From positions 3,554-67,553 of IMG/VR virus record IMGVR_UViG_2541047850_000005: 64,000 nt of DNA; one strand, 5' to 3'. Every line of letters begins with the position of its first letter. Position 1 is the first letter of the stretch. Positions 43,286 to 61,762 of the stretch are shown here, one piece after another. Both the position numbers and the translations under genes were made by a program. The notes under the pieces were generated by a model. It did not search any database. It was given only the letters and a program-made list of their open reading frames with translations, and had not been told where the DNA came from. The stretch is from a virus (taxonomy: Duplodnaviria; Heunggongvirae; Uroviricota; Caudoviricetes).

Positions 43286-43347
43286 GTGTTTTCCTATGTG
43301 GTTGTTATGCGAAAATAATAAGTAAGTGCTTATGTATTTTCAAGAGA

Positions 43348-43377: not shown

Positions 43378-45717
43378 TTACTCTTCTACTGACTCGGTGG
43401 GGTTGTCTTTTGCTCTTCGGTCGTCGATTGCCTGCAAAGCCGCAATGATTTCAGCCAGTGGCTTCTCCCGATACATCTCGACGATCTGCGATTTGGTGTA
43501 TTTCTTGTCACCAATTTCAACTCGCCCGCTGGCGTTCTTTGGCAGGTATCCTTCTTCCAGCATGTACTCGACGAGCGATTCGATAACGTCGAGGCCACGA
43601 GTAGGATCGAAGTAGAATTTCCAGGTGCATTTGCCATACGGTGGTGCAACTTTGTTTTTGATGCATTCTGCGCCTACGTCCTGGCCGATCTTCTCTTTAC
43701 CATCCTTCATCACCGATGCACCAAGACGGATACGTACAGAAGCGTAGAACTTCGGTGAATCTCCACCTGGCGACGTAGTAGGGTCGCCAAACATTACACC
43801 GATTTTTGTGCGAACCTGATTCAAGAAGATGATGCAGGCGTTGTATTTGCGTGCCCACAAAGCCAGAGTAGGGAAGTTCGCACTTGTCGCACGAGCCAGT
43901 GCCGTATTGTCGTTCATGTTTAGCTGATCTTTGTCTTTGGCAGTGCCTTCAGCCATCTTTTCGAACTTCTCGGCTTTGGAGTTCGGAACCATAGACGCAA
44001 GTGAGTCAGCCACGATACAGATAGGTGCTGATTCAGGAATAAGCTCTTCATCACGTACCAATTTAAGAATTGTGCCGATCAACTCTACAGAGTCTTCGAA
44101 GGTATCAGGCTGCTTGTATACCCACTGACCGTCATCCTCATCTGCGTTCAGGCCATTGGCTACAGCCAGGCCAACGTCAAAACTGTTTTCATGATCGAGG
44201 AATACCGCCAGACCATCTTGTTTTTGAGCGGAGATCATCGCTGCTGTTGCAAGGAATGTGTTGTGGCTGATAATCCCGTTAGACCAGAAAGAGTGTGTTT
44301 CCGGCATCGCTACGTCGAACGTTGGTGCTTCACCTTCCTCAATAGCCACGACTTCGTCGTAGAATAAGTTAGAGCCAATTACCGCTGCCAGTTGTGCAAA
44401 CAGATGCTCGTTAAAACGATTCTTTCTGCCAATGAAGGAGACATAGATTTCTCGCAGTTTGTCTATTCCGACACGATCGCCGCGGCCAATAACGTGGTCT
44501 ACCAGAGCGTAGTCTTCACGGGTGGTCTTGGTGAGCGACTCGTAGAGTGATTTCACTAAGCCGCTGATGTGCGGAACATAGCCTGAGTAAGTGCGGTCAA
44601 AACCAATGTCCCGTTTGGTTGCCACTGATAAACGTGCCGGAGATTCGAAACCAATCGTTGACAGAAAAAGGTCGTAATTAGAGCCACTGAATGACAGCCG
44701 GTAATATGTATTTTCATAACCCGCGACGTGTTTTTCAGAGATAGTTGACGTAATCCCCAGATTCAGGAGCATGAGGCGAATTTGCTGTAGCAGCAGCCCA
44801 CTCGCGCTCACAACCTCAATGCAGCGACCACCATTGACGTGGCATTCCAGCTCAAAGTAGCCGCGAAGGAATGCAATTTGAGCCTCGCTATTGGCGCGAC
44901 GCACACTCAACGGAACCTGCTTGCCAGCAGCTTTCTCATACTCCAGACCATATTCTTTAAAAAGCAGCGAACGCACCTCTTTGCTAAACAGCACATGGTC
45001 TTCCGAGCCGTTATGTTTTCTCGTAACTGGCATCTTGTCTGATACCAGCGAAATGAGGCGGTAGTACTCATCCTTGATGAATGGATCTGTGTTAGAAAAA
45101 TGCACAGAATTTTCAGAGGCCACGTATCCGTCAGCAATTAAATAGCCCATCAGTTTTGCGATATTGGCATCCAAGTGCTGATCGCCGAATTGATGTGTGC
45201 CAACCATTGAAGGAATCGTGTCGCCTACACTGATTTTTTCAGCATACCGCCAGACGATATTGCCTAAGTCGTCAACCACACGAATTGGGTGACGGAACGT
45301 AGCCTCGATGTAACCCCCTGATGCCAGCTTAATGCGCTTGAATTTGCGACGGTTGTTCCATGTCAGGTGTGAGGTTTTCTCTATCACGCCATTTTCATTG
45401 ATGAGTCCAACGTTATGCTCTACATCGCGAGTAGTGCATGTTGCTTTGTGCCCCTCAATCTCAAACAGTTCTTTCACTGTTACCATTCCACGCTCCGTCA
45501 GCAGCATGGTGTCTGCGGTAACACATTTCCCCGCACTTGGAGGACCGAATACTTCGACGATACGACCACATGGGAAACCGCCATCGTAACGACCGGAAAT
45601 CGCTTTGTTTAACGGAGGAAAGCCTGTGTCAATCCAATGAGTTACTTTCTGAATTTCGTCGTTGCTACCGATTTTCTTTTTCAGAGCAAGTGCCAGTGCG
45701 GATTTTCCTTTTGCCAT
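43378..45717 (-). CDS. recA: RecA recombinase interrupted by an intein
   Basis: The exteins read GRIVEVFGPPSAGK|TFLA.., QPDTFE and FLNQVRTKIGVMFGDPTTSPGG..KFYASVR, which is RecA-like. Confidence 0.9.
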   Translation of the reverse strand: MAKGKSALALALKKKIGSNDEIQKVTHWIDTGFPPLNKAISGRYDGGFPCGRIVEVFGPPSAGKCVTADTMLLTERGMVTVKELFEIEGHKATCTTRDVEHNVGLINENGVIEKTSHLTWNNRRKFKRIKLASGGYIEATFRHPIRVVDDLGNIVWRYAEKISVGDTIPSMVGTHQFGDQHLDANIAKLMGYLIADGYVASENSVHFSNTDPFIKDEYYRLISLVSDKMPVTRKHNGSEDHVLFSKEVRSLLFKEYGLEYEKAAGKQVPLSVRRANSEAQIAFLRGYFELECHVNGGRCIEVVSASGLLLQQIRLMLLNLGITSTISEKHVAGYENTYYRLSFSGSNYDLFLSTIGFESPARLSVATKRDIGFDRTYSGYVPHISGLVKSLYESLTKTTREDYALVDHVIGRGDRVGIDKLREIYVSFIGRKNRFNEHLFAQLAAVIGSNLFYDEVVAIEEGEAPTFDVAMPETHSFWSNGIISHNTFLATAAMISAQKQDGLAVFLDHENSFDVGLAVANGLNADEDDGQWVYKQPDTFEDSVELIGTILKLVRDEELIPESAPICIVADSLASMVPNSKAEKFEKMAEGTAKDKDQLNMNDNTALARATSANFPTLALWARKYNACIIFLNQVRTKIGVMFGDPTTSPGGDSPKFYASVRIRLGASVMKDGKEKIGQDVGAECIKNKVAPPYGKCTWKFYFDPTRGLDVIESLVEYMLEEGYLPKNASGRVEIGDKKYTKSQIVEMYREKPLAEIIAALQAIDDRRAKDNPTESVEE
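44260..45525 (-). other. 422-aa intein with a LAGLIDADG homing-endonuclease domain inside the RecA Walker A
   Basis: Starts with Cys (GK|CVTADT) and ends ..GIISHN|T. LMGYLIADGY and FLRGYFELECH blocks. Confidence 0.85.
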
Positions 45718-46990: not shown

Positions 46991-48019
46991 TTAAAGAGAG
47001 TCCAGCTCTCTCAGTAGGTCATCCAGACCTTCATCTTCCGTCGCAGATGCGGCTGCTACAGATGTCGCTGCGACTGCTTCAGACTCTTTGACTGATACTG
47101 CAACGGCAGCGGAACTTGCTTCTGGTTTAAATTCAGTTTCAACGGCACGGAGGATTTCTTCATCAACCAGACTGGTTGGTTCAGAAGCTGGGGTGTGAGC
47201 GGTAGCTACAGCAGTCGCACCCTCCGTATGACCAGTGACAGAGCCAAATCCAGGCAGTGCCGCAGCCGATGTTTTCGCGGTTGAGGAAATTGCTGGTGCA
47301 GATGCTGCGGCAGTTGGTGCAGCGATGCCAATCAGACGACCCATAGTGCGAACTGTCGACAGAAGACGAGTTTCATCAGCCTGATTTGCGTATGCGATCA
47401 GATCATGCTGGGTGTTCCAGAATTTATCTTCGATATCGCCTTTGTAGACTTTACGCTTAGGCGAGACGTCATATTTGGTATCGCGACCAGAGCCAGTACG
47501 TTTAATCAGGAATGCGTAGCCTTCCTCTTTGCTCAGTGGATTACCGATATCATCAGCGATGTCTTCGGTGATTGCTTTGCAGATATCATCGAATACAGTA
47601 GACGGCAGCTCGATTAACTGGCATTTCTCAGCATCTGCGAAATCCTCACGAGCAGAAAGAATGCCGTTGACCAGGTAGCGAGGAGTGGCACGCATTTGAC
47701 CGATGCGTTCTTCCATTGCTTTGTTACCCTTGTGACGAGCGCGACCTTCCATCACCATTTCGCATAGCTGACAAGCGCGACCGTGAGTATGTTGCTCACA
47801 AATATAAGCGTTGGTTGCTTCTTTACCTTCCTCGTTCTGATACTTAACGTAGTGCATACCGAAAGTCTGGAAGAACTTACCGTTTGGGTCGTCTTTATTC
47901 GGGAAGATGCGGATATAGTTGACGCCGTCTTTTAAGCGAGTCAGATCAACGTTGTTACCACGTTTGGCGGCAATGTCTTCACGAGTTTTGTTAAGCAAAT
48001 CAAGTAATGTCTTAGACAT
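46991..48019 (-). CDS. gp32-like single-stranded DNA-binding protein candidate
   Basis: CEQHTHGRACQLC zinc motif, an Ala-rich linker and an acidic tail EDEGLDDLLRELDSL. Confidence 0.55.
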   Translation of the reverse strand: MSKTLLDLLNKTREDIAAKRGNNVDLTRLKDGVNYIRIFPNKDDPNGKFFQTFGMHYVKYQNEEGKEATNAYICEQHTHGRACQLCEMVMEGRARHKGNKAMEERIGQMRATPRYLVNGILSAREDFADAEKCQLIELPSTVFDDICKAITEDIADDIGNPLSKEEGYAFLIKRTGSGRDTKYDVSPKRKVYKGDIEDKFWNTQHDLIAYANQADETRLLSTVRTMGRLIGIAAPTAAASAPAISSTAKTSAAALPGFGSVTGHTEGATAVATAHTPASEPTSLVDEEILRAVETEFKPEASSAAVAVSVKESEAVAATSVAAASATEDEGLDDLLRELDSL

Positions 48020-48136
48020 GTGTTTCTCCTTGTTGTGATTTGGCCGATGGCGCTATGCGCGTTGGGCTTTCGTTCATTCGTGGCTCTTTCGAGCTGTTTA
48101 ATGATAGATCAGTGCTTACTTATTATCTATCAAAAA

Positions 48137-48568
48137 TCAACGGGGAGTAATAAAGCGTTCAGAGCCTAATCGCTCTAATTCAACGATGGCCATCTTTGAC
48201 GCCTGAACGATCATGTCTCGGCGATGCGAAAAGGCGGCGACAGCATGTTTGTATATGTCTGCGATGTGCCGTGCTTCATCCAACTTCTGCCGTTTAGACA
48301 GATACTGTGGGTTTGTTTTAACCTTAGCGTCCAGTACAGATTCGTTGAACTTAATGCCGTTCATACTCAAGTTCTTACGCTCTGTGTCGTATAGCTTTGC
48401 TTCAACAGCTTCAAGGTTAAGTTTTGCTTCTGCGACACTTCTTTCTGCATGGGCGAGTTTTGAGCCATATTCCATCAACAGGCGGGGTTGTCTACGCCAG
48501 ACTTCCTCCAGATTGTCTCGGTCAAACTCGAGATCAGACATTATTTTCTCGTAAATATCGGTGATCAT
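48137..48568 (-). CDS. hypothetical coiled-coil protein (143 aa)
   Basis: ORF downstream of dnaE. Confidence 0.6.
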   Translation of the reverse strand: MITDIYEKIMSDLEFDRDNLEEVWRRQPRLLMEYGSKLAHAERSVAEAKLNLEAVEAKLYDTERKNLSMNGIKFNESVLDAKVKTNPQYLSKRQKLDEARHIADIYKHAVAAFSHRRDMIVQASKMAIVELERLGSERFITPR

Positions 48569-48693
48569 GTGCTTTCCTTTTTACTTATCATCTTATATTG
48601 ATTATATCATTGTGATGATAAGGCAAGGAGTTCGAGGATAGGGGATATGAGGGGATAAGAGAAAACATGGCCATAGAGGCCATGTTTATTGGA

Positions 48694-51600
48694 TCACGAC
48701 TTAATAGTTTCTGCTACGTCGGCTAATATCGCTTCTAGTCGTTCTCCCTCTTCAGGTCTGAAGTAAAGAATGTTGGGGTTAAACCCGTAAAAGACAGTAA
48801 CGTCAAGGTCTGGAAGATACTCCTTCCTGCCGACCAAATCGGATGGCTTGTTTTTGTTGTTAAACAATGCCGTTGCCCGGCTGCCACACGTCAGCACATA
48901 GGTCGGACGCACCAGATTGATCTCTTCACGTATAAAGTCGGTGAACTGGCCGATCTCGTCTTTGGTGTAGTCTTTTTCTTTGTCTTTAACCTTCTTGCAA
49001 ACGCCTGTGACATAGAGATCGCCCATGCGTAAATCTCCAGCCGTCAATAGCTTGGCCTTAAAGTCGTCGTATCCGTTCTCCATAAAGTAACCTGTTCGAG
49101 CATCATTGCCGTTCGCATTGTCCAGAATGATCATGATTTTCGGCTTAATACCAATGCTGGGGCGGATTAGTTCATCACCTAAGCCCATTTCAGCCGCCAT
49201 CCGTGTCATGAGCACGTTAATCTCAGCCGAACGTTTGGGGTTCATCTCAAACGGACGTGAGGCTTTAACTGCGTCTATGACAAGATTTCCCATCAATTCC
49301 GCTTGGTCGCGGAGACGTTCTGGATCAGTTGCTGGCAGACTACCTGGCTCGATGGATGCAAACGCACCTACTTTTCGCAGTGATTCGCGCACTCGACTAT
49401 TACAGGCACGTTTCTCGACAGCTTCTTCGAATTGCGCCAGTGACTCGAATTTGCCGCCAACTTTTTCTCGCGCTCTCATGATGGCTTGGCAGCCATTCTC
49501 AGAACACCCCTTCACAGCAGAGAAGGGTGCATACAGAACCTGGCTGCCATCTTCAAGCGTGCGGATCTCGATTCGGTTAGATGACACGTTAACGTCTGGT
49601 GGCAATACGCGAATACCATAGGTCAGCGCATCTTTAACCAGCCCTTGGTGTTTATCTTCGCCAAGAATAGTGAGAGCAGCAGCGAAAAACTCTGCGGGAT
49701 AATGAGTTTTCAACCACATAGATTGATAACTGATTAAGGAGTAAGCAACAGAGTGTGATTTGTTGAACTGGTAGGCACCATTTTTTTCGAATGCGGTCCA
49801 GATCTCCTTCGCTTTCATCTCTGATAGGCCAGGATGTGACGCTGTAACGCGTACTGCGTTTATAGGTAGTTTTGCGCCGTGCTCAAGTGCCTCTTCGACA
49901 GTTTTCAGAGTTCCGTCTTCGCATTTAAAATGTTCCGCACGGTGAATGCGCTGTGTAGTGCCATCTTCCAGCTCAACGTCTATCCAGCCAGCTTGAGCCT
50001 GAACGATGAACTTCTCGCCCATGCTCTTCATTTTTTCCATGTTCTTCTTACCGATTGCGGAACGCACACCGTCAGCTTCAGCCATTGTGAAGCCGGCAAG
50101 CAATCGAGTCGCGTTCATCGTCTGTTCCTGATAGAGAATCACGCCATTTGTTTCCGCGGTAAGTTCATCAAGAACGGGGTGTAATGATTCCGGCGTCATA
50201 AAGCCTTTGGCGACAGAAACATAGTCATCCAACATGCCTGATTGAATTGGCCCCGGCCGGAAGAGCGCAGTTGTAGCGACGACCGTTTTAAAGCTCATTG
50301 GCTCAATTCCACCACCTAAATCTTTAAGCAGCTTGCGCATTGGGCCTGATTCAAGCTGGAAAACACCTTGAGTGTACCCAGCAGCAAAACCATCCAGTAC
50401 CTTGCGATCTTCAAGAGAAATGGCATCAAGATTGATATCCTCACCTGTGTTCTCTTTAATGTAGCGTTTTGCACTATCGAGCAAATCGAGAGTCGCCAGG
50501 CCAAGTACATCCAGCTTAATTAGGCCCATAGCCTCGCAGTAACGCTTGTCAAATGCGATACAACGCGCGTCACCACGGCGTTCAACCGGTGTACGTTCTG
50601 TCAAGGGAACACCTGCTACGATCATCCCTGCCGCATGTCTGCCAAAGCCACGCATAATGCTTTGTAACTTACAGGCTGCATTGAATGCATCAGGATATTT
50701 TGTCGCGTATTTGTCGAGACTTGCTAGTTGTTCGCGCAGCTCTTCCAATGGAAGGCTATCATCCTCGACGTTCTTCAGTTCTTTTGATACCGCCATATCC
50801 GCAGCATCGACACCGTAAATACGCGCAGTGTCACGCAGCGCAGAAGCAGCGCCCAGATAGGTGAAGTTCGGAATACCGGCAACGTAATCTTCGCCATAGC
50901 GTTCATTCAGATACTCGATCACCTCATGACGACGTGCCTGACTGAAGTCTAAATCAGCATCCGGCAAGTCGAGACGCTCAGGGTTGATGAAACGCTCAAA
51001 CAGAAGACCGTGACGGATTGGGTCGACGTTGGTTATGCCTATGCACCACGCCACCAGAGAACCGGCAGAGGAACCACGACCAGGCCCAACGGGAATGCCA
51101 GTTTCACGACTATGATTCATCAGATCGCGCACCATCAGGAAGTAACCACAGAATCCCAGGCGAGTCAGCGTGTCCATTTCGTACTTTAGCCGCTCAACAT
51201 AAACCCTGTTCTCAGAAGCAGGTGGTGTGTATCCAAACTCTTTTGTGGTAAGACGTTTACGCAGCCCTGCAACAGCCAGTTTCATCAGCGTTGCAGGTTC
51301 GTCGTCTGCCATCTTGGGCAGTGCTGGTGGCAATTCATGCCAGCGCCATGTGCAGGCATCGATAATGGTATCCTGCGTTGTTGAGGCCATTGCAGCTGTT
51401 ACCGGCACATCCATGCGAACGGAGAAGGCTTTAAGCGACTCAAGGAGATGGCGGCGACCATTGACGGCGTTATCTCGCTGGTGGGGGATACGCAGACGAT
51501 GCGGCTGGTCGATTTTTATGTTGTTCGTAACCATGTGCGCAATGTCTTTAATGTCTGCATCGTCGATCGATTCGTAATAAGCGGGATAGAACGCTACTGG

Positions 51601-52212
51601 CTCTATTTTCAGTGCGCTGGCTACTTTCATCGCTCGGACGTTAATCTGGTCGTAGAATGGGGTAGGGTGCGGATAAACCACGCTATAGAAGTTGTCTTTT
51701 CCACCCGCTGTAATCAGTGTGCTTATGATTTTTGCAAAATCGTTGCGTTGGAACACGCTACCGATGTCGGAAGTGAGCAGGATGATGTTGCCTTTGGCAT
51801 ATGTAGAAACCAACTGTTCGAGCGAGAGACGCGGTACAAAGTAGAACTGTTCTCGTGTGTTGGCCACCGTCATTAGTTCGCAGATGTCGCGATATCCTTG
51901 CTCATTTTTAATTAGAGCGGTAAACGAGTAGTTACGTCCCCGCTCTAATGATTCCATACATCTCATAGATTCTTTAGCAAGTTTAGCACGGTGCTCGTAT
52001 GTGGGATCATCAACAATGTTTAGTTTCACACCACAAATAACCGCCATGTCGTCACCAGCGGCACGTTGTAGTGGAATAACGCTCGCAATATTCATGCTAT
52101 CTGCTGAAATTACAGCGGTGTAGCCAGCTTCTCTGGCAATCTTCACCGCGTTTTCTGCTTTTAAAGCCGACTCCCCAAGTGAGAAGTCAGTTCGAACCAT
52201 CAGTGCCTTCAT
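48694..52212 (-). CDS. dnaE: DNA polymerase III alpha-type (C-family) polymerase
   Basis: 1172 aa. GRGSSAGSLVAWCIGIT and PDADLDF palm motifs. The N-terminal PHP region lacks the usual His residues (MVRTDFSLGESAL). Confidence 0.93.
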   Translation of the reverse strand: MKALMVRTDFSLGESALKAENAVKIAREAGYTAVISADSMNIASVIPLQRAAGDDMAVICGVKLNIVDDPTYEHRAKLAKESMRCMESLERGRNYSFTALIKNEQGYRDICELMTVANTREQFYFVPRLSLEQLVSTYAKGNIILLTSDIGSVFQRNDFAKIISTLITAGGKDNFYSVVYPHPTPFYDQINVRAMKVASALKIEPVAFYPAYYESIDDADIKDIAHMVTNNIKIDQPHRLRIPHQRDNAVNGRRHLLESLKAFSVRMDVPVTAAMASTTQDTIIDACTWRWHELPPALPKMADDEPATLMKLAVAGLRKRLTTKEFGYTPPASENRVYVERLKYEMDTLTRLGFCGYFLMVRDLMNHSRETGIPVGPGRGSSAGSLVAWCIGITNVDPIRHGLLFERFINPERLDLPDADLDFSQARRHEVIEYLNERYGEDYVAGIPNFTYLGAASALRDTARIYGVDAADMAVSKELKNVEDDSLPLEELREQLASLDKYATKYPDAFNAACKLQSIMRGFGRHAAGMIVAGVPLTERTPVERRGDARCIAFDKRYCEAMGLIKLDVLGLATLDLLDSAKRYIKENTGEDINLDAISLEDRKVLDGFAAGYTQGVFQLESGPMRKLLKDLGGGIEPMSFKTVVATTALFRPGPIQSGMLDDYVSVAKGFMTPESLHPVLDELTAETNGVILYQEQTMNATRLLAGFTMAEADGVRSAIGKKNMEKMKSMGEKFIVQAQAGWIDVELEDGTTQRIHRAEHFKCEDGTLKTVEEALEHGAKLPINAVRVTASHPGLSEMKAKEIWTAFEKNGAYQFNKSHSVAYSLISYQSMWLKTHYPAEFFAAALTILGEDKHQGLVKDALTYGIRVLPPDVNVSSNRIEIRTLEDGSQVLYAPFSAVKGCSENGCQAIMRAREKVGGKFESLAQFEEAVEKRACNSRVRESLRKVGAFASIEPGSLPATDPERLRDQAELMGNLVIDAVKASRPFEMNPKRSAEINVLMTRMAAEMGLGDELIRPSIGIKPKIMIILDNANGNDARTGYFMENGYDDFKAKLLTAGDLRMGDLYVTGVCKKVKDKEKDYTKDEIGQFTDFIREEINLVRPTYVLTCGSRATALFNNKNKPSDLVGRKEYLPDLDVTVFYGFNPNILYFRPEEGERLEAILADVAETIKS

Positions 52213-52396
52213 GTGTTTTTACCTTTCTGGTTTTTTTGATTTTGTCATTTGGGAAGCCTACGAACTTCCCATGCATCGAAATCGCAACTTCTTTTGCTGA
52301 TTGGTGACAATAAGGCTTGTCTGGACACACCAGACAAGCCTTACCAGTTTCAGAAGCAGCGATAAGAGAGCCGAAACATCCTTTACGCACGATCAA
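52187..52396 (-). CDS. small Cys-rich ORF bridging the cobS-like gene and dnaE
   Basis: TTG or GTG start overlapping the cobS-like stop. CLVCPDKPYC. Overlaps the dnaE start by 26 nt. Uncertain. Confidence 0.35.
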   Translation of the reverse strand: MIVRKGCFGSLIAASETGKACLVCPDKPYCHQSAKEVAISMHGKFVGFPNDKIKKTRKVKTHEGTDGSN

Positions 52397-53628
52397 CCAA
52401 ATATTTTTTGAACAACTTCACGAGCCGCTTGTGCAGAAGCTGAAGGGAGTTTGTTAATGAAAGAACGCTCAATACCTGTCACAAAATCGCCTCGCATCAT
52501 TCCAATCTTGGCCGACAACAAAAGCTCACGAGGCCCAATCGGTTGGCTGATATTGTGTTCTTCGTATCCATCGCGAACGATACCGGCAAACTTAACCATC
52601 TTTTCAGCGTATTCATCCACGATGCCGGCATTTATCAACATGTTGATCTCTGCCTCTTTGCTCATGTATTTCACATTCGAAACGATGCCAAAACGCGAAA
52701 AGTTAGCGGCGTTCTGGATGTTTGTACCCTGGTACAAGCCGGTTTCATCACCAGATCCGTTCGTGTTGCCAGTGCCAATGAAAGCAAACCGTTCATGCGG
52801 AGTAATGCGACGCCATTCTGGAGTCGCCTCTTTGATGACCAACGCTTCACCTTCCAGCACTGGCTGATACACGCCAAGAATCTGTGGAAACGCAAAGTCG
52901 TATTCATCCGCGAGGTAAACCCAGCCATGCTTCATTGCGAGCGCAAGCAAACCAGGCTCGAAATACGTAGAGCCATCACGCGCCAGAATTTGTCCCGTAA
53001 CATGAGCCTCTTCCATTGATGCTGTATGTTGGGCACGGATTAACGGACGATTGAGCAAAGCACATAGTTGTGTAGGCAATGAAGATTTGCCTGTTCCTGC
53101 ATGACCCCACAAATAGCCTGGTATGCCAAGTTCAAGCATCATGAAAATGTCTTTGATCAGTTCGAAGTCGCCATATACGTATCCCTTCTTCACTTCTGGA
53201 ACGAACTCTGGAAACGGCGTATTGACGTTGACGCTAACCATGAGCGGCGTCCCACGTTTTGTTCCGAGTTCTTTCACCGTTACATTTAGCATTTCGTGAG
53301 CTGCGACCAGATCTGTCTTGTACTCAACTGTGCCTGTATAGCCTGGGCTATTGGTCACGCCAGATGATTTGGCCATTTCGCTTTTTTGCTCGGCACGTTT
53401 AGCTTGAATTGCATCAAGTGCCTTTTTCGATAGCGTTGGCTCATCTGGAAACTGCGTTGTGTACATTTTCAGTACGGTGTCAGGATCGGCATCTTTTACT
53501 GACTCAGGAATGCCCTCGCAATTACCATTGGCTACATGGGACTTAAAATAGTGAAATGATTTTCCGCACCACTTGCAAACAAGGTAATCAGAAGGATTTT
53601 TTTCATTTTGCAGTGCAGTAGTAGTCAT
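52393..53628 (-). CDS. CobS-like MoxR-family AAA+ ATPase with an N-terminal zinc ribbon
   Basis: WGHAGTGKSS, VYLADEYD and FIGTGNTNGSGDETGLYQGT are CobS-like. CKWCGK..C at the N-terminus. Confidence 0.85.
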   Translation of the reverse strand: MTTTALQNEKNPSDYLVCKWCGKSFHYFKSHVANGNCEGIPESVKDADPDTVLKMYTTQFPDEPTLSKKALDAIQAKRAEQKSEMAKSSGVTNSPGYTGTVEYKTDLVAAHEMLNVTVKELGTKRGTPLMVSVNVNTPFPEFVPEVKKGYVYGDFELIKDIFMMLELGIPGYLWGHAGTGKSSLPTQLCALLNRPLIRAQHTASMEEAHVTGQILARDGSTYFEPGLLALAMKHGWVYLADEYDFAFPQILGVYQPVLEGEALVIKEATPEWRRITPHERFAFIGTGNTNGSGDETGLYQGTNIQNAANFSRFGIVSNVKYMSKEAEINMLINAGIVDEYAEKMVKFAGIVRDGYEEHNISQPIGPRELLLSAKIGMMRGDFVTGIERSFINKLPSASAQAAREVVQKIFG

Positions 53629-53723
53629 GCGTTTTTCCTTTGTTTTCTAATGAGCTTTCAACTTCTTATATAAATATACCATCAAATATCGTAAGTGATT
53701 ACTTATCATTAAGGCTATTCTAA

Positions 53724-55832
53724 TCACTTCAAAATGATACGAGATAGTTCAGTAACTACAGATGAACCAAGACTATCAACGCTCGTTACCAGGGCATGGT
53801 TTGCGTAAAATCTCTCCGGTGCGTCAGTCATGATGCCAATTGCCATCAAATCAATGTCAGTCTGCGTTTCAATTTGCTTCGCAACCGAACGCAAATGAGC
53901 GTCAAAACCTCTCCCAACAGCCAACGGCTCGCCATCATTCAGAACAAGCATGATCTTCCTGTCCTCCATGCGACCGGAAAATAACGATGCAAGGCTGGCT
54001 ATGCTTTCACCATCCACGTTATTAAGAAGTGGGAATGTGTAGCCTACGCACCCCATACGTGAGCGAACTTCGCGAGAATTTACCTTTTCATTCCAATTTT
54101 TGATGATAGGTAGCATTAAAGATTCAAAGCGAGAGAACTCATACTTGACAGCCTTAAGTTCTCCTGCCGCCATATGACTACCAAATGTAGTGAAGCCGGT
54201 GATAATGTTGGGAACATTTATTCGATCAAGGGCATCGGCGATGGTATATGCACTTGCAAGAGCCAATTGTATCGTTATACCACTCATTGAACCTGATAAA
54301 TCAATCACTTGTTGAACACAGGCGTTAACGGCTTTAGATTCTTCTTTTTTACGAAACACGCGATCATCATTCATTGCTAATCTGTAGATACTAGAACCAT
54401 GAATGCGCCCCCGACGCTGGCCCGGTATAAACTGAACTCTGTTTCTGCTTGCTATTGCTCGCTCCAGGTCTTTTGCCAGCGTCGACGAAACACCTGACGA
54501 AAGATGCTTTTCAATATATTTGTCGAAGAGCTGGTTGCCTTCAGGAACGATGCGATAGCGGCTGATTGGATATCCTCCTAAATCAATATCGGAGAATGTT
54601 TTAATAAGCCGTTTGATATGGGCTTCTGCCTGATCAATCGAGCCGATGAAGTCGTATGAGCGATTGTATGGCCTGTATTCACTTTTCGAGCTTTCTGTTA
54701 ACTCGCTTTTAATCGTTTCGGATAGAGCATCTTCTGTCATGCCTCCGACTTCATCTTCTATGCTATCCAGCTCCTCTAAAGCCTCTTCCAGACTCATTTT
54801 TGACGTAGTTGGAATATCTGAAGAGCCGTCTTCTGTCGTTTTTCTTTTTTCGTGGTCAGCGGTTAATGATTCTGACGCCGCGTTATCAGAAGCATCAGAA
54901 TCTGATACCTCTTTATCATTTTCTGTATCATCGAATATTGTTTCTGATGATTCAGAATTATCTGAATCATCACTGTCGTTATTATCATGTTTGTGCTTAC
55001 TATGTGATTCTGATTTGATAGATTTGTGATTATCTAACAATGAGGGTGTCTCATGATCTTCGTTGTCTTCATTGTTTTCTCCAGAGGCATCCGTCTGGTC
55101 AGCGTCTGAAGGATCGGAAGTTTTTCCCGGAGCTGACTCCTTACCTTTGCTTTCACTTTCAGTGTCTTTGAGGATCTTAGCTATGGTCGCAGCCACCTTT
55201 ACACAATCCTCGGTGCAAGACATGTTACGCACGGCCACATCGATACCATGTTCTTTTAATAATGAAATTGGTTTCTCAATGACAGGCCAATATTCATCCA
55301 TGAAATCTACGAACGGTGCTTGGCCATCCCAGGCTCTTACAACCGGACAGAGAAAGAAGTTTAGAAAAAGCGCGCGCTGATCTTTGCCACAATAAGCAAT
55401 AGCCTCTGAAGCCTTTGGTTTAAAGACTTTTTCGATTATAAGGCGCTGAGTTGCCATCAGATTACGTCTTGTTCCGTTAAAGACCTGACCCATTTTTCGC
55501 TCGATGAACACGTCTTCTAAGGCATTCCATAGCGACCAGGAAGGAACGCGTCCTTTTTCTTTCATTTTGTTGGACACACGAATATCGGTAAACAAAATGT
55601 GAGCAACCTCATGATCGAGAAATCCGCGCACAGCATTCATCAATGCCGGTGTTGCGTTATCCGGGATTGATGGGATGTTTACGAGAATTGGCTCTCCATC
55701 ATCATTATAGCGTACATAAGCGTCGTCCCCTCGTTCTGCAACAGGGATGTTTTTACCTGAAAGGAGAGCGACTACTCGTTTTACACTGTCACGGAAGTCC
55801 TGAACCTCTTTGATGGAACGTTTTTTAGACAT
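53724..55832 (-). CDS. CobT-like vWA-domain protein with an N-terminal HExxH motif and an acidic linker
   Basis: C-terminal VIDLSGSMSG MIDAS. HEVAH at aa 74-78. D/S/E-rich segment at about aa 225-345. Confidence 0.8.
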   Translation of the reverse strand: MSKKRSIKEVQDFRDSVKRVVALLSGKNIPVAERGDDAYVRYNDDGEPILVNIPSIPDNATPALMNAVRGFLDHEVAHILFTDIRVSNKMKEKGRVPSWSLWNALEDVFIERKMGQVFNGTRRNLMATQRLIIEKVFKPKASEAIAYCGKDQRALFLNFFLCPVVRAWDGQAPFVDFMDEYWPVIEKPISLLKEHGIDVAVRNMSCTEDCVKVAATIAKILKDTESESKGKESAPGKTSDPSDADQTDASGENNEDNEDHETPSLLDNHKSIKSESHSKHKHDNNDSDDSDNSESSETIFDDTENDKEVSDSDASDNAASESLTADHEKRKTTEDGSSDIPTTSKMSLEEALEELDSIEDEVGGMTEDALSETIKSELTESSKSEYRPYNRSYDFIGSIDQAEAHIKRLIKTFSDIDLGGYPISRYRIVPEGNQLFDKYIEKHLSSGVSSTLAKDLERAIASRNRVQFIPGQRRGRIHGSSIYRLAMNDDRVFRKKEESKAVNACVQQVIDLSGSMSGITIQLALASAYTIADALDRINVPNIITGFTTFGSHMAAGELKAVKYEFSRFESLMLPIIKNWNEKVNSREVRSRMGCVGYTFPLLNNVDGESIASLASLFSGRMEDRKIMLVLNDGEPLAVGRGFDAHLRSVAKQIETQTDIDLMAIGIMTDAPERFYANHALVTSVDSLGSSVVTELSRIILK

Positions 55833-55930
55833 GGCTAATCCTTTGTTATGAAAACAAATTATTTACTAGTATGTTTAATGTAGCACTGCGCGAACAGGGA
55901 ACTAAGCCATTCGCGCAGGTAGCAGAGGGG

Positions 55931-56143
55931 TTAACAGGTTCTGACGGCTAAAGAGCCAGAGCCGGTATTGATAAGCGTGAAGCGTTTGTTATTAAGTAGG
56001 AATATAAAGGCTGTTGCGTCATGCATACCAACCTGAATCTGCTCATTTGGTAATTCGGTGAGAATGTCAGCTACACATTCATCAGCTAATTTTTCAACGT
56101 GTCCGATCTCAAGAGTGATTAGGCTGGAAATAGTTGTTTTCAT
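55931..56143 (-). CDS. hypothetical protein (70 aa), first leftward gene of the divergent control region
   Basis: ORF divergent from the XRE gene. Confidence 0.5.
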   Translation of the reverse strand: MKTTISSLITLEIGHVEKLADECVADILTELPNEQIQVGMHDATAFIFLLNNKRFTLINTGSGSLAVRTC

Positions 56144-56318
56144 TCAATCAATCCATTCTAACTTAAAATATGGTAGGGAGTACTATTAAATCTTATATCA
56201 TAATTGAACTTATCTATATCATATCTGAGTTAGTTTTGTTACATGTTATTAGTCGTTTTTCTCCATTAATGAATGCTGATTGGTTAATATTTGTGCCTGT
56301 AGAAAAAATGATTATATC

Positions 56319-56361
56319 TTTACAACCCTAACCTTTGATGTAATATCGGTAAGCACTTACC
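56319..56361 (+). promoter_or_regulatory. candidate promoter of the XRE gene with a motif-2 half-site palindrome at +1
   Basis: TTTACA-16-TAATAT, then GGTAAGCACTTACC at 56348-56361. Confidence 0.5.
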
Positions 56362-56390
56362 AGAGAGTTTAACGCGCAAAGGTCGCAATA

Positions 56391-56777
56391 ATGTCTGACA
56401 AAAACATTGAATTTATAGAAAGTCGCTATGCTGCTTTTATCGCAGGGCTGATTGAATCCTCACCTATGAGTCAGGCCCAAATAGCCAGACTTATTGGTTA
56501 TAAAAATGCCAACAACCTTTCTTTAATTAAAAGTGGTAAAATTCCTTTGCCTATCGATAAGGTTCGTCCGCTGGCGTTGGCGCTGGGTATTGAGCCAAGT
56601 CGTCTTATGATGATGGTGCTGGAAGAACGCCAACCTGAACTCGCAGCATTTTTATACAAAGAAGGCACCGCTCCTCTTAACGAGGACGAAAAACAGGTTC
56701 TTGCTGCATATAACGAGCGATTCGGTAAAGAGAAAGGCGCATCACAAAAGGTTGTTGAGGCCATAAAGTCTCTATGA
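56391..56777 (+). CDS. XRE-family helix-turn-helix regulator (repressor candidate)
   Basis: SQAQIARLIGYKNANNLSLIKSGK HTH. The only obvious HTH protein in the block. Confidence 0.8.
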   Translation: MSDKNIEFIESRYAAFIAGLIESSPMSQAQIARLIGYKNANNLSLIKSGKIPLPIDKVRPLALALGIEPSRLMMMVLEERQPELAAFLYKEGTAPLNEDEKQVLAAYNERFGKEKGASQKVVEAIKSL

Positions 56778-57875
56778 AAAATTTAGACGAATAAGCTCTG
56801 TTGATAGACGATCTCCCTTGAATTTGTGGTCAATTTCGTCTAAATCCGGTTGCTCTACGATTGATGCGATGTACGTTGAGAAACTTTCTAAGGCGTCTCG
56901 CATCTCGTCCATATAATCGTGCCGGTCGTAGACCCGATCTATCCCCTCAAGACTGTGGTTCATGATTTTGCGTGATACCTCCTGGCTTATGCCTAATGCT
57001 GGGAAGTAACTACGCGCAGTACGACGCAAATCTCGGGGTGTAAATGGCGCAAGCTCCATCAGTTCTGGTCGTTCCAGAATACGACGTAATGCCTGGGCTA
57101 TTGCCACTTTAGACATAGGAAGGTCTTTCCCGATTTTTTTATTCGAAGGCACGAGCCACTGGCTGTCTTTACCGTATTCGAACAACTCTTCAATGCATGT
57201 GCGCATTAATGTGCTTAAAGGCAGCGAATGCTCACGTGCTGACTTGTTTCTCTTGCCTTGATTCCAAACTCCACGCTTAAGATTGAACTCACTTTTTTTA
57301 GCCCTCAGTACTTCGTCAGGTCGTCTTGCTGATACAAGACACAGCCTGGCCGCCCATTTTGTACCAGCGCACACATTGAAGTAGTCCCATATATTCCAGA
57401 ACACCCATACCTCTGCGTCGGTCAGCTTCCGCTCGCGAGGTGTGGGCTTTGCGCCACCGGCAACTTTGTTTAGTGACATATCGTTTAACGGTGACACGTC
57501 TATCATCCCCTGGAAGGCGCACCAGCTAAGGAACTGCTTCATCAGAGAGAAAACGCGGCGGCCCATAACAATTTTGCCATCCAGTATTAGTGGGTTGACC
57601 AGTTGGTTCACCATGAACCTATTAATGTCACTTACTTTTACATCGGCAATGTGCGGCAAAACATGTATCAAAATACAATGAACAGCGATCTCTGGCCGAC
57701 GTCTGGTTATCAGCAGAGATAAGCGAGTGAATAACATGAATGCGTCCGAGAATTTCATATCATTGCTAACCTGCGAGATCATAACGGCCTGCATTTGAGA
57801 TGCTCTTTCGAGATACTCAATCGCCTCTTTTGAGGTGTTCTCAGCAGCGCGTGCTCTGTCAAAGCTATTTTTCAT
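56772..57875 (-). CDS. int: tyrosine recombinase/integrase
   Basis: ..RDLRRTARS.. and ..MNHSLEGIDRVYDRHDY (R, H-x-x-R-like, Y). Confidence 0.88.
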   Translation of the reverse strand: MKNSFDRARAAENTSKEAIEYLERASQMQAVMISQVSNDMKFSDAFMLFTRLSLLITRRRPEIAVHCILIHVLPHIADVKVSDINRFMVNQLVNPLILDGKIVMGRRVFSLMKQFLSWCAFQGMIDVSPLNDMSLNKVAGGAKPTPRERKLTDAEVWVFWNIWDYFNVCAGTKWAARLCLVSARRPDEVLRAKKSEFNLKRGVWNQGKRNKSAREHSLPLSTLMRTCIEELFEYGKDSQWLVPSNKKIGKDLPMSKVAIAQALRRILERPELMELAPFTPRDLRRTARSYFPALGISQEVSRKIMNHSLEGIDRVYDRHDYMDEMRDALESFSTYIASIVEQPDLDEIDHKFKGDRLSTELIRLNFS

Positions 57876-58407: not shown

Positions 58408-59190
58408 TTATTTTGAGATATATAAAGTTTTGTGTGGCTGTTTATTTTTCAGGTAAAATTGTTTAGGTGTCATATTGAAGTACCTCTTAAACACTGAGAT
58501 AAAGTATGCTTCACTTGTATATCCTAAACACTTGGCGACAAAACCAACTTTCCCAGTGTTGTGTTCTAATAGTTGTAACGCGTTTTTCATTTTAGTATCT
58601 AAAGTTAACTGTGTAAAAGTATAATTTTCCTCTTTTAGTCTTCTCCTCAATGAGGATTCTGAAGTATAAAGAGCGGAAGCCATTTCGCCTATACGCCATT
58701 GTTGAGTTAAGTTTTTTTCTAAGATGGATGATACTTTTTCTGAAATCAAAATTACTGGCATTGACTGCTTAAAGAAGTTTGTAAGTTCATAGGTGTCTAT
58801 GCGGCTGAATAAAAATAACAGTATGCTAACGCGTCTAAAACCTGATTTTTCATTTTTAAGTTGTCTAAAGGCTAACTCTTCTTCCGTGTTCAGACTTGGT
58901 CCGATAATTAATGGTGGTTTGTTGTTGGTCGGGTGTATATTAACGCAGGAGAGAAATTTCACAATAATTCCAATATCCTCATCTTGAATAGTATAAATTT
59001 CGTCAGCAGAAACACGTCCGCTCAAACCAACAATTTTACTCTTTTTGCTAATAATGAAAAATGTATTTTTTAAAAGTTCTATCTCTTGATGCTCATTCAA
59101 ATAAATTTTTATTGATTGATGTTTGACATAAACTAAGGTGTATTTATTAAATATCATGTTTTTAAATGGCAACATGGTATTTTCCATCAC
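58408..59190 (-). CDS. Rns/CfaD/AggR-like AraC-family regulator
   Basis: 260 aa, AT-rich. C-terminal double HTH (..SESSLRRRLKEEN.., ..GYTSEAYFISVFKRYFNMTPKQF). N-terminus resembles Rns. Confidence 0.85.
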   Translation of the reverse strand: MMENTMLPFKNMIFNKYTLVYVKHQSIKIYLNEHQEIELLKNTFFIISKKSKIVGLSGRVSADEIYTIQDEDIGIIVKFLSCVNIHPTNNKPPLIIGPSLNTEEELAFRQLKNEKSGFRRVSILLFLFSRIDTYELTNFFKQSMPVILISEKVSSILEKNLTQQWRIGEMASALYTSESSLRRRLKEENYTFTQLTLDTKMKNALQLLEHNTGKVGFVAKCLGYTSEAYFISVFKRYFNMTPKQFYLKNKQPHKTLYISK

Positions 59191-59246
59191 GCAAATTTTT
59201 ATATTACCACACCATGATTATGATGTGGTACATACTATATGAATAT

Positions 59247-61727
59247 CTATTCGCAAACTAGGGAGAGTCGACTTATCTTGCTTTGGTTTGCTTTTAATTC
59301 AAATCGTGCGGAGCATTGGCTTTCTTTATTGTCTCCCCATTGGACATGCATTTCACCTCTGTCAGGCATACCACTCATCCATACCTGCCCATCGTTCGAA
59401 ACAATGCTTGTTACACTGATATCTCCGGCTTCTCCTTTTAACGAGGCAATAGCGCCAAAAGGAACGAAATTACCATTTTTTCTAATCAAAGTAATAAGTG
59501 CCTTATGTCCAGATACTACATTAAATTTGGCGTGAACTAACGCCCCACGGGAAGGTACTACCGTTAAATCAGATTTAATTATTTCAGTTTCTTCATTAAC
59601 CTTGTTTACGTCTAGAGATATTCCATTTTTTCTATAGGGTGAAAGGTAAGGAACCACAGCATATCCATTGAAATCTGTGCTAATACCAATACCTCTTTTT
59701 ACTTTGATGTCTTCTACGCCATTAGTGTCGATCAATGCATTAGCTCCGTCAAGAGATAACGGCTGAGACAATACAATCCCTTTTTTGTGTACAACTACTC
59801 CACCGCTAATGCCAAATTGTAATTGTTTTGAGTTATGTTGATGTGACACTGTTGATTGTATCTCTCCCTTGGAGGATTTATATCTCAGCGTTGCATTACC
59901 TGAACTGGAGTCACGACTACCGCTATGATAACCTTCCATGAAACTATAATATAATTGCTGGTCTATAAAATAACCACTCACACCTGCTTGTGTATTTGTG
60001 CTATTTCCTGAATTGTATACATTTGTTGTCAATGATGCATTACTATAGTTCGAAAAAGAACTAAAAGGTACTGAAACTGAAAGATAAACAGATTTATCTA
60101 TATCTTCATATTGTGGTTGTTTATTATAGTTTAATGACAAGGATGTAAATACCTTTTTTACAGGAAACGAATACGATAGCCGAAATTGGCGACTATCTTT
60201 AGCATTTCTATAAGTAGTCCAGTCTGAGGATAAGGTCAATTGGTTAGTATTGCCAATACTTTGTTGCAACTGAGTGGTAATTCTATTTATTTTATTAAAT
60301 TTGGAATTATTACCAATCTTCATCTGTTGATAATCATTAAAAGAATAGAAGTTCTGTGAATTATAAAGTTGCTCTGTCAAATTCAAATAAGTACCTGTAG
60401 ACTCAAATCCTTTCGCAAACATTAGTCGAGTTACAGAACCATTTTCACTTTTTCCATTATCTTTAGACACCGTATCAGAATCGGAGTAGCTCAGATCTAA
60501 TGAAAAAGCACCAATTGAAGATATGTACTTGCCAACTCCAAATGAAGCCGAACTATAGTTTTCGGCAACAATTATTCCACCAAAGATTGTAGTGTCCCAT
60601 CCTATACCCCATGCCGTTGAATATTGTAAGAATAAGGGCTTGTCTTTGAATGAGCTATTGATATCTCTATACTTACCAATTGCTGCGTGATAACGCATGC
60701 GACCTTTACGTTGGAGAATCGGTAATGTTGATGATGACTGTGTAAAGTGTCTAATCTCGCCATTACTTTCTCGTATTTCGATATCCATATCCCCTCCATA
60801 CAAAGGGAAGACATCTTGCAGCTCGAATGGACCTGCAGGAACGTCACCTTGCCAGATTATCATATTATTTTGCTTTACGATTATTTGGGATGGAGTGAAT
60901 GCGATTCCTCTAATTGTAGGGCTGTAAGTGCTCATCCAAGGGACGAGCATGCCATCATCGGACCCTATTGATATCCCTTCAAACGGAAAGCTTTCAAACA
61001 CTCCATCATCAGTTGATGATTGTCCAAATGTCAATTGTCCACCTTGTCCGAAGCTATAGTCATGACGCAAGTAGGTATTCAAATTTGTCCAGCCATATTT
61101 ACTTGAATTCCAGTACCCATTATGTCTCACTCTCCACCCCCCGATATTCAGTCCACTGTTAATTGCCAGTGATTGATTGTTCTTGGATGTTGAGTTTAGC
61201 CTTTGTCGTACATCAGAATAACGGTAATTTACAAGCAGTGAGGTTTCACCATCATCCCATGCTTGAGGTGGTATTTCTGACCACACAGGACGATAGATCC
61301 AACTTTGTGGAATGTTTACACTTAGAATCTGCTTGCTCTTATTGAATTTTACTTCAAACCCTTTGATCTGTTTTGAAAGTTCATTAGAAAGAATACTGCC
61401 ATTAGTTATATTTAAATTCGTTACATCAACCCCCCACTTTTTTAGACTCGTCTCTGTAAGTAGAGGAACAACCTTTCCTTTTCCTGATGATACGAATCGG
61501 ATCGTTTCCGTACCGAATGATTCATTGTTGACTTTAACATCAACAAGATATTCTCCAGGAAGAACTCCGTCCGCATGAGAGAAATAACTTAAATCAGGAG
61601 CATTAACCTTTTTATCATTACCAATATTAATAAATGCAGGATCAAATGTGTAGTTGGTTGCTAACTCTTCTGCATTGCTATAATGTATGACAAAAAAGAC
61701 AAATAAGGCTATTTGTTTTGTTTTCAT
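59247..61727 (-). CDS. fimbrial outer-membrane usher
   Basis: 826 aa, signal peptide, FimD/PapC-like length and beta-rich sequence, positioned between chaperone and regulator. Confidence 0.92.
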   Translation of the reverse strand: MKTKQIALFVFFVIHYSNAEELATNYTFDPAFINIGNDKKVNAPDLSYFSHADGVLPGEYLVDVKVNNESFGTETIRFVSSGKGKVVPLLTETSLKKWGVDVTNLNITNGSILSNELSKQIKGFEVKFNKSKQILSVNIPQSWIYRPVWSEIPPQAWDDGETSLLVNYRYSDVRQRLNSTSKNNQSLAINSGLNIGGWRVRHNGYWNSSKYGWTNLNTYLRHDYSFGQGGQLTFGQSSTDDGVFESFPFEGISIGSDDGMLVPWMSTYSPTIRGIAFTPSQIIVKQNNMIIWQGDVPAGPFELQDVFPLYGGDMDIEIRESNGEIRHFTQSSSTLPILQRKGRMRYHAAIGKYRDINSSFKDKPLFLQYSTAWGIGWDTTIFGGIIVAENYSSASFGVGKYISSIGAFSLDLSYSDSDTVSKDNGKSENGSVTRLMFAKGFESTGTYLNLTEQLYNSQNFYSFNDYQQMKIGNNSKFNKINRITTQLQQSIGNTNQLTLSSDWTTYRNAKDSRQFRLSYSFPVKKVFTSLSLNYNKQPQYEDIDKSVYLSVSVPFSSFSNYSNASLTTNVYNSGNSTNTQAGVSGYFIDQQLYYSFMEGYHSGSRDSSSGNATLRYKSSKGEIQSTVSHQHNSKQLQFGISGGVVVHKKGIVLSQPLSLDGANALIDTNGVEDIKVKRGIGISTDFNGYAVVPYLSPYRKNGISLDVNKVNEETEIIKSDLTVVPSRGALVHAKFNVVSGHKALITLIRKNGNFVPFGAIASLKGEAGDISVTSIVSNDGQVWMSGMPDRGEMHVQWGDNKESQCSARFELKANQSKISRLSLVCE

Positions 61728-61762
61728 CGCGTTTTTCTATAAATTTGAGTTATTTCTTATCA

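Follow-up and report, generated by a model that had tools for sequence, protein, structure and literature searches.

A CobS/CobT-like gene pair in the replication module of an SSU5-like phage-plasmid carries a zincin-type motif absent from 120 cellular CobT orthologs

What function can be served by genes for two cobaltochelatase-like proteins, CobS and CobT, on a phage that carries no gene for CobN? This question is raised by two adjacent genes in a stretch of 64,000 nt of tailed-virus DNA (IMG/VR record IMGVR_UViG_2541047850_000005, positions 3,554 to 67,553), which was analysed as a whole and will be called the window. Over positions 48600-55900, the window has 100% identity to Escherichia phage PhiR41_1, which is an SSU5-like phage-plasmid; identity is 94-97% to further SSU5-like phage-plasmids of E. 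coli and 80% to Salmonella phage SSU5. Both genes belong to an array on the minus strand, in the order 70-aa open reading frame (ORF), cobT-like gene, cobS-like gene, small Cys-rich ORF, dnaE, and genes for a UvsY-like protein, a gp32-like single-stranded DNA-binding protein, a 5'-3' exonuclease and an intein-containing RecA. Flanking genes are those of a divergent helix-turn-helix (HTH) protein (56391..56777) and an integrase. The two genes and their parts are as follows.

53724..55832, minus strand: cobT-like gene, 702 aa (Pfam CobT at residues 9-294, 9e-27, and CobT_C at 492-701, 5e-81; full-length AlphaFold2 (AF2) model)
55155..55832, minus strand: N-terminal domain, residues 1-226, a helix, a three-stranded sheet and then helices; predicted M48-like zincin fold
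55599..55613, minus strand: HEVAH (H74-E75-x-x-H78), followed by D83 (HExxHxxxxD); candidate zinc site and catalytic base, from conservation
55500..55526, minus strand: N103-x-x-E106-D107-x-x-x-E111 on the next long helix (96/99-117), the 'Glu helix'; candidate third metal ligand, from conservation and models
54807..55154, minus strand: disordered D/E/S/T-rich linker, residues 227-342 (about 116 aa), from composition and low model confidence (pLDDT)
53727..54806, minus strand: C-terminal part, a strand and helix-pair extension followed by a VWA domain (504-701); aligns to residues 228-616 of solved CobT
54288..54302, minus strand: MIDAS (metal ion-dependent adhesion site) D511-x-S513-x-S515 (VIDLSGSMSG), with N605/D607 and D633; invariant and aligned with the CobT MIDAS D422/S424/S426
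52393..53628, minus strand: cobS-like gene, 411 aa, MoxR/CobS-class AAA+ ATPase with an N-terminal extension of about 140 aa (Pfam AAA_5, 2e-15; phrog_249, labelled 'porphyrin biosynthesis', 1e-106)
53080..53106, minus strand: Walker A, GHAGTGKSS, residues 175-183 (G175, G178, G180, K181), at least 85% conserved in 43 CobS-like homologs
52897..52911, minus strand: Walker B, ADEYD, residues 240-244 (D241, E242), at least 85% conserved, as are N288, R312, R352 and R367
53536..53577, minus strand: predicted C2H2-like mini zinc finger at the CobS-like N-terminus, C18-x2-C21-x4-H26-x4-H31, from the residue pattern

The answer proposed here starts from the CobT-like protein's N-terminal domain. A phmmer search with residues 1-226 gave 1124 cluster representatives at E<=1e-3, and motifs were counted in the best 150 of these (33-74% identical). 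HExxH was present in 148 of these best 150. H74, E75 and H78 were found in 144-145 of the 146 aligned representatives, and D73, N103, E106, D107 and E111 in at least 96%; in a full-length alignment of 34 diverse homologs all eight residues were invariant, together with those of the MIDAS. Because it is invariant across the viral family, HExxH is no chance occurrence. Its conservation among homologs had been set beforehand as one test on which the original prediction could fall, and the viral family passed it. The presence of HExxH in 58 of the 58 viral loci described below is not counted as evidence, as these loci were partly fetched by a pattern containing DHEV.

Cellular CobT reads differently at these positions. 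The sequence of the solved CobT N-domain was reached with an approximate CobT N-terminus as query, the real chain being read from the match, and the viral profile aligned to this domain (hhalign 83%, E 9e-6). At H74, E75 and H78 solved CobT has S, M and R (SMxxR), and at D107 it has Q, while E106 and E111 are retained. HExxH was likewise found in none of 120 cellular CobT orthologs (a mostly alphaproteobacterial sample); these read D-[SA]-[MI]-A-L-[RK] instead, with both Glu of the Glu helix retained and Q at the D107 position. Judged from the aligned residues, the viral N-domain keeps the full zincin signature that has been lost in the real chelatase adaptor, and the N-domain of solved CobT is an M48-like pseudo-peptidase. 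Its fold has been described as peptidase M48C-like in a preprint on the CobSTN holoenzyme (July 2026, 10.64898/2026.07.21.739949); no link of CobT to HExxH or to zincins was found in the literature searched.

In the AF2 model of residues 1-226 (pLDDT 85, pTM 0.79), a helix and three strands (31-53) precede the HExxH helix (62-81); a short helix then leads to the E/D/E helix (99-117) and at least five further helices. This is the topology published for CobT_N. As in M48-like gluzincins, HExxH lies in the model on the helix following the three-stranded sheet. From sequence and predicted topology, E106, D107 and E111, invariant on helix 99-117, are the candidates for the third ligand. The spacing HExxHxxxxD is also that of HtpX/BlaR1-type M48/M56 peptidases. 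In zincins, a Glu of the E75 type acts as general base and is not needed for metal binding alone; that E75 is as conserved as both His argues for hydrolysis over mere metal holding. A Foldseek comparison of the N-domain model with PDB gave no match (the library copy is probably older than the CobT entries, and the domain is mostly helical), and a single-sequence phmmer search of PDB with the N-domain gave noise only. A viral structure library contains the N-domain again in VWA proteins from siphoviruses, podoviruses, actinophages and tailed viruses of haloarchaea. A few loci have separate ORFs for the peptidase-like part and the VWA part.

The remainder of the protein is CobT-like as well. Solved CobT (9uka_G/21vt_A) matches it at 7.5e-13 and 6e-15, and the layout of the full-length AF2 model (N-domain, disordered linker, strand/helix pair, VWA) equals the CobT plan. 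The linker is rich in charged and hydroxyl residues (D+E 30%, S+T 28%, hydrophobic 7% over residues 225-345), with pLDDT of 23-30 over 227-342; in CobT the linker is also disordered and about 90 residues long (10.64898/2026.07.21.739949). Within the extension, helices 431-460 form a candidate 'shaft' with a low-confidence tip (461-495), and homolog alignments showed Y386, D394, E457, R458, G471 and G475 of the C-terminal part to be invariant. The C-terminal MIDAS, the D/S/E-rich linker of about 120 aa and the N-terminal HEVAH that had been claimed from the sequence were thus all located.

As for the CobS-like protein, its residues 141-411 match solved cobaltochelatase CobS (9ujv_A, 4e-26) in an alignment that takes in the GTGNT..GDxTGLYxGT segment, and the next-best solved matches are CbbQ/NorQ and Midasin. 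Besides Walker A and B, the product contains the further CobS/MoxR signature GTGNTNGSGDETGLYQGT, so that every motif quoted in the original prediction was found in place; by its residues, the ATPase site is intact. The Cys pair of the N-terminal CxxC ribbon proposed there is present, but the actual pattern is that of a C2H2-like mini-finger (C18/C21/H26/H31). This finger is kept in the DnaE-syntenic clade and a few other homologs and is missing from the T4-like ones. With an AAA_5-class ATPase carrying Walker A, Walker B and the arginines, encoded beside a VWA protein with a complete MIDAS, the two genes form a MoxR-VWA pair.

The solved cobaltochelatase CobNST (9ujv, 9uka, 21vt, 21vu) contains a homologous motor and adaptor with the same order of parts. 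CobS forms a hexamer ring, into whose pore the 'shaft' that precedes the VWA domain of CobT moves upon nucleotide (ATP) binding, and the CobT N-domain contacts the CobS lid and domains IV/V of CobN (10.64898/2026.07.21.739949). This mechanical cycle (ring, shaft in pore, N-domain on lid) is probably common to the viral pair. Several differences exist as well: the viral pair has no CobN partner in the phage and none expected in the host, and scores far under the equivalog cut-offs (see below), its N-domain has HExxH, D107 and the Glu helix where real CobT reads SMxxR, its CobS-like protein has an extra N-terminal region of about 140 aa with the C2H2-like finger, and its genes lie among replication genes and not among cob genes.

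Our preferred explanation, to which we assign a rough probability of 45%, is that the pair is a CobST-like motor and adaptor in which a protein client replaces CobN and is probably acted on by proteolysis, and that it is expressed with the replication genes. From homology, motif conservation, the absence of CobN and gene context, we infer the mode of assembly, the peptidase activity and the nature of the client as follows. The MoxR-class AAA+ motor (CobS-like) and the VWA/MIDAS adaptor (CobT-like) would assemble as in solved CobST, with the CobS-like protein as a hexamer ring, the CobT-like shaft entering its pore on ATP binding and the N-domain docked on the lid. A protein client would sit where CobN does, with the MIDAS face on one side of it and the N-domain on the other. 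The MIDAS would grip this client, ATP-driven movement of the shaft would position or unfold it, and the putative zinc site of the N-domain would cleave or process it; the full zincin signature of the viral N-domain makes such ATP-assisted cleavage or processing the most likely activity. The outcome would be an AAA+-driven metalloprotease whose protease is borne by the adaptor. As the pair is encoded, and apparently regulated, with replication and recombination genes, the client would most likely be tied to lytic DNA replication, for example as a host or phage protein that needs removal or maturation for this process or for host takeover.

The same parts could, on the other hand, make up an ordinary MoxR-VWA chaperone that remodels its client without cleaving it, the HExxH site being a structural metal site or a binding pocket. 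All characterised MoxR-VWA pairs (CbbQO, NorQD, RavA-ViaA, CobST) remodel and do not cleave, according to the discussion section of the holoenzyme preprint (10.64898/2026.07.21.739949), and the same domain in real CobT is a pure docking module. However, the catalytic-type E75 is invariant in the viral family, and the whole motif has been lost exactly in the lineage with a known docking-only domain. We therefore hold a non-proteolytic remodeller to be unlikely. CbbQ-CbbO, NorQ-NorD, RavA-ViaA and Midasin resemble the viral pair in that an AAA_5-class motor is combined with a MIDAS adaptor bridging to the client, but none of those adaptors has an intact zincin motif. Analogies of parts, with no detectable sequence relationship, are offered by the self-cleaving CLCA (PMC3650047), where an HExxH domain is joined to a VWA domain, and by FtsH, where an AAA+ motor is joined to a zincin protease.

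Could the pair nevertheless do what its names imply? In the literature, it was hypothesised that such proteins are true auxiliary cobaltochelatase subunits which hijack a host CobN or ChlH-type subunit to raise B12 synthesis (PMC8651126). The homology to CobS and CobT is clear, and the pair shares the domain architecture of CobT and the AAA+ core of CobS. Nevertheless, the window contains no CobN-sized gene (dnaE is its only ORF above 1000 aa), and the remaining 44 kb of the identical phage PhiR41_1 hold tail, partition and primase genes, with no CobN and nothing cob-related. E. coli lacks B12 synthesis, and Salmonella relies on the unrelated CbiK for cobalt insertion (PMC7689651). The published reading, a boost to B12 synthesis through the CobN of the host, cannot hold in E. 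coli. Among the phage genes, none for a B12-dependent enzyme was seen: the ribonucleotide reductase is of class Ia (NrdA with ATP-cone, and NrdB) and the thymidylate synthase is ThyA, neither of them B12-dependent. Against the NCBIfam equivalog models, the scores were 87.2 bits for TIGR01650 (CobS; cut-off 558.55) and 60.8 bits for TIGR01651 (CobT; cut-off 759.05). Moreover, where the real enzyme binds CobN through its N-domain surface, the viral protein has the conserved zincin site. Given that there is no CobN on the element, no host B12 synthesis, a class Ia ribonucleotide reductase and scores far under the equivalog cut-offs, cobalt chelation is implausible for the pair in this phage and host, as the original prediction had argued, and is almost certainly not its function here. 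Subunits that hijack a host enzyme are correspondingly highly improbable; for this host, the chelatase reading is close to refuted and the cobalt-chelatase label is wrong. Similar labels were observed elsewhere. In phage Cyrano (OV696614.1, 11645-15084), the homologs are annotated 'cobalamin synthetase' and 'dimethylbenzimidazole phosphoribosyltransferase'. These are functions of the unrelated Salmonella CobS and CobT, and the annotation presumably arose by erroneous transfer of names.

Next, we consider gene context. A pattern scan of viral contigs gave 58 loci. In 46 of these cobS lies beside cobT, and the remaining loci are cut by contig ends. The order HTH gene, cobT, cobS, gap, dnaE, uvsY-like gene, gp32, exonuclease gene and RecA gene is kept in 23 loci (L003-L025), among which CobT identity falls from 98% to about 28%. 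Beyond these, the pair persists in either gene order with no DnaE nearby, and its neighbours are mostly replication and recombination genes, for example:

L027: UvsW-like helicase, DnaB, DnaG, the pair, intein-bearing PolA, gp32 and RecA
L043 and L059: T4-like, with a gp46-like SMC ATPase on one side of the pair and the gp44 clamp loader on the other
L049: a primase-helicase adjoining the pair
L044: a Prim-Pol helicase near the pair
L033: a DNA ligase near the pair
L028: an exception, with a deacetylase-like neighbour
L026: an exception, with a terminase gene about 4 kb away

The pair thus sits in replication and recombination modules around three polymerase types (DnaE, PolA and T4-type). A replisome-associated remodelling or protease role had been suggested from the sequence. 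The conserved position in replication modules fits such a role, but synteny and co-location are no evidence of a coupling to DnaE, be it physical or functional, and some phages have the pair but lack DnaE. In addition to phages, the gene was found on 1019 plasmids in PLSDB, mostly non-mobilizable and about 105-115 kb in size, carried by Klebsiella, Escherichia, Acinetobacter, Enterobacter, Yersinia (pMT1-type) and Salmonella.

Context also bears on the role proposed for a closely similar pair. In group 2.2 jumbo phages, a MoxR ATPase and a vWA protein with an N-terminal metallopeptidase domain were described, and a function in virion assembly and processing was suggested (Iyer et al. 2021, PMC7824862). 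Compared by description, these proteins (for example ASV44728/ASV44729) have the same architecture and two-gene layout as the pair studied here, and the T4-like homologs (L043/L059) carry both HExxH and DxSxS. A chaperone with a processing protease for virion assembly, for which the MoxR-vWA pair in ATV tail development offers an analogy, would therefore suit the domain architecture. In contrast, the annotated contexts are replication and recombination genes and not head or tail modules, and the structural genes of this phage lie at least 20 kb off, on the other arm; in one locus, L026, a terminase gene lies about 4 kb away. We judge this role improbable for the present pair.

Another suggestion of the original prediction was a MoxR-vWA conflict system, that is, a defence system carried as phage-plasmid cargo. 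Systems of vWA and MoxR proteins with effectors are known as conflict systems (PMC7159879). Here, however, PADLOC gave nothing beyond a negligible DrmE match (E 0.004), no effector or VMAP gene is adjacent, and the gene is a core gene at a conserved position in the replication module, on about 1000 plasmids and in many phages, unlike variable cargo. This suggestion is not supported, and a defence function is very unlikely.

The pair might also be a chaperone that loads metal into a phage or host metalloenzyme, of which di-iron NrdB and the DnaE PHP domain are examples; the HExxH/Glu site would then hold the metal transiently. Metal insertion was the first role proposed for MoxR proteins, and it is how NorQD and CoxDE act (10.64898/2026.07.21.739949). 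The phage encodes both NrdAB and a PHP-domain DnaE, and the family is descended from, or ancestral to, a metal chelatase motor. Yet there is no specific link to any single metalloenzyme, the pair co-occurs with DnaE, PolA and T4-type polymerases alike, and E75 would be unnecessary for holding a metal. The probability of such a chaperone is in our view low.

Several points also weigh against the client-cleaving motor and adaptor that we prefer. MoxR-class motors usually remodel their clients and do not degrade them. Across the 58 loci, no recurrent third gene, either a possible client or another partner or CobN substitute, was found beside the pair, many of the apparent gene clusters being antisense artefacts. 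A location in replication modules is typical of auxiliary genes of nucleotide metabolism as well, so context alone does not prove a role in replication, and within the SSU5-like lineage the gene order may be conserved from vertical inheritance alone.

The pair itself is a member of a viral family that has already been described, both as the cobST cluster and as the pair of MoxR and metallopeptidase-vWA proteins. The two-gene cobST cluster is widespread in tailed viruses of bacteria and archaea (PMC8651126), and cobS is a cyanophage core gene (PMC3037559). These are the identical two adjacent families, and the pair belongs to that cluster; the CobT partner of cyanophages is likewise often labelled 'peptidase'. 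The SSU5-type pair differs from the published cluster in its fixed cobT-cobS-dnaE arrangement and in the zinc finger on CobS. As the original prediction had noted for several phages, CobS/CobT homologs are annotated in many phages, and a search of the literature for functional or expression data on viral cobS/cobT returned annotation-level statements only. This work adds three points: viral and cellular proteins contrast systematically in HExxH when set beside the new CobT structure; the pair keeps its place in replication modules that contain three types of polymerase; and the small ORF between cobS and dnaE is identified as a truncated member of a dnaE-tied Cys4 family.

This ORF and the other genes around the pair are as follows.

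52187..52390, minus strand: small gene, 67 aa from GTG 52390 (alternative TTG 52396), with a Cys4 domain C-x13-C-x2-C-x5-C and a Lys-rich tail (phrog_6337, 6e-45)
48694..52212, minus strand: dnaE, Pol III alpha, 1172 aa (Pfam PHP, DNA_pol3_alpha, finger and HHH_6), its ATG 26 nt inside the small gene
55931..56143, minus strand: conserved 70-aa ORF at the head of the leftward gene array (phrog_2627, 3e-39; homologs 5' of cobT in L003-L005 and L007)
56391..56777, plus strand: divergent HTH repressor-like gene (weak Pfam HTH_19/HTH_37 matches; most of the 23 syntenic loci have a homolog next to cobT)

The small Cys-rich ORF is a real gene, since it matches phrog_6337 and has a dN/dS of 0.11-0.18, measured outside the dnaE overlap. 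Its sequence identifies it as a truncated member of a family of 180-235 aa encoded upstream of dnaE: the long homologs carry the same N-terminal CFG..C-x2-C-x5-C motif, with the four Cys invariant and often arranged as CxxCP. In the distant members of the syntenic loci, the gap between cobS and dnaE is filled by two genes, one for an ECF-like sigma factor and one for a Cys4 protein of 180-235 aa. The sigma factor was detected in L009-L024 (for example L010, 12055-12741) with Sigma70_r2 matches of about 1e-6 to 1e-7, above the Pfam cut-off; a homolog was looked for in this phage and none was found. Full-length relatives of the Cys4 gene, in distant relatives beside the gene for the ECF-like sigma factor, lie for example at L010 12743-13450, L013 4695-5237 and L019 14375-14902. 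The Cys spacing of the small ORF equals that of WhiB-like Fe-S proteins; WhiB7/WhiB3 ranked 3-5 in a PDB profile search, at a non-significant E of 0.15-1.1, and there was no Pfam Whib match.

The overlaps of cobS with the small ORF and of the small ORF with dnaE, on which translational coupling had been proposed, were borne out in part. The small gene does end 26 nt inside dnaE (ATG 52212). The cobS TGA lies at 52395-52393, however, and overlap with cobS is obtained only via TTG 52396, merely the first possible start; GTG 52390, which follows 2 nt after the TGA, is conserved as the start in four relatives (ATG in one), giving a constant 67 aa. The compact arrangement of cobS, small ORF and dnaE is tight and conserved in relatives, as had been claimed.

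The intergenic regions of the array contain two conserved elements.

53691..53705, minus strand: dyad motif TAAGTAATCACTTAC within the 95 nt between cobT and cobS, a putative regulatory site that recurs in intergenic regions and is conserved in relatives in which the surrounding spacer has diverged
55886..55918, minus strand: hairpin (CTGCGCGAA...TTCGCGCAG) conserved in the spacer from the 70-aa ORF to cobT (-18.9 kcal/mol, z -4.0)

With up to 3 mismatches allowed, the dyad motif TA[AG]GTAAnCACTTAC has 13 copies in the window against 1.6 expected, on the minus strand at 53691-53705, 48108-48122, 43322-43336, 41695-41709, 23613-23627, 16427-16441 and other positions. Six minus-strand genes, cobS and gp32 included, have a copy 30-103 nt upstream. 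The motif does not form a stable RNA hairpin, and because it can be as close as 30 nt to a start codon, it is no classical -35 element. The motif-2 promoter of the original prediction thus corresponds to a real recurring dyad upstream of cobS, although its standing as a promoter is doubtful. A sigma-70 promoter scan gave fewer matches than shuffled sequences, and on the coding strand it had no match ahead of cobT or cobS. Overall, the earlier interpretation held for the pair, the missing CobN and the conservation of HExxH, and found no support for the conflict system or for this promoter. The dyad is probably a shared protein-binding, operator-like site of some regulator, and, as it precedes both cobS and gp32, the cobS-small ORF-dnaE unit appears to be co-regulated with gp32. 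The hairpin ahead of cobT has two compensatory pair changes in L004/L007. In the approximately 40 nt that follow it, a conserved palindrome (AAAACAAATTGTTTT-like) immediately precedes the ribosome-binding site of cobT. This element could serve in attenuation or processing, or as an operator of translation. A Rfam scan of 48000-57000 gave no match.

Other observations concern the polymerase and more distant parts of the window. The C-terminal region of DnaE, about 250 aa (48694-49500; about residues 920-1171), has matches of its own to PHROGs without assigned function (phrog_4335, phrog_13175), plus a weak match to part of another family of polymerases; this region may be an additional domain fused to DnaE. 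Polymerase genes of relatives are interrupted, dnaE being present as two ORFs in L005, L006 and L018 and PolA of L027 (13463-17971) containing LAGLIDADG inteins. The RecA-like gene of the window (43378-45717, minus strand) likewise contains an intein, whose endonuclease domain is of the LAGLIDADG type. Positions 6323-8485 on the minus strand code for a methionyl-tRNA synthetase of full length (720 aa, E 5e-166). Positions 58408-64000 form a cargo region of low GC (35%) with an AraC-like regulator (58408..59190) and an 826-aa ORF (59247..61727), putatively usher-like (fimbrial) as judged from the sequence by eye.

On more than 1000 sequenced plasmids the pair is labelled as cobalamin or porphyrin biosynthesis, and in marine phage ecology it is counted as a B12 'auxiliary metabolic gene'. 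The zincin contrast between viral and cellular proteins, the expected lack of a host CobN and the fixed placement among replication genes give a testable reason to look for another viral function, and the contrast suggests how a chelatase adaptor relates to a peptidase. In its broadest form, which we regard as rather doubtful, the viral CobST would be a widespread, active AAA+-driven metalloprotease used by tailed phages of bacteria and archaea for DNA replication or host takeover, with cellular CobT as its pseudo-protease relative. If this were true, cyanophage 'cobS' would be mis-assigned as a B12 auxiliary metabolic gene, as would the 'porphyrin biosynthesis' genes on about 1000 clinical plasmids of Enterobacteriaceae and Acinetobacter. 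For the phage-plasmids of clinical isolates, a conserved ATPase/protease-like pair beside the lytic polymerase is a candidate requirement for replication.

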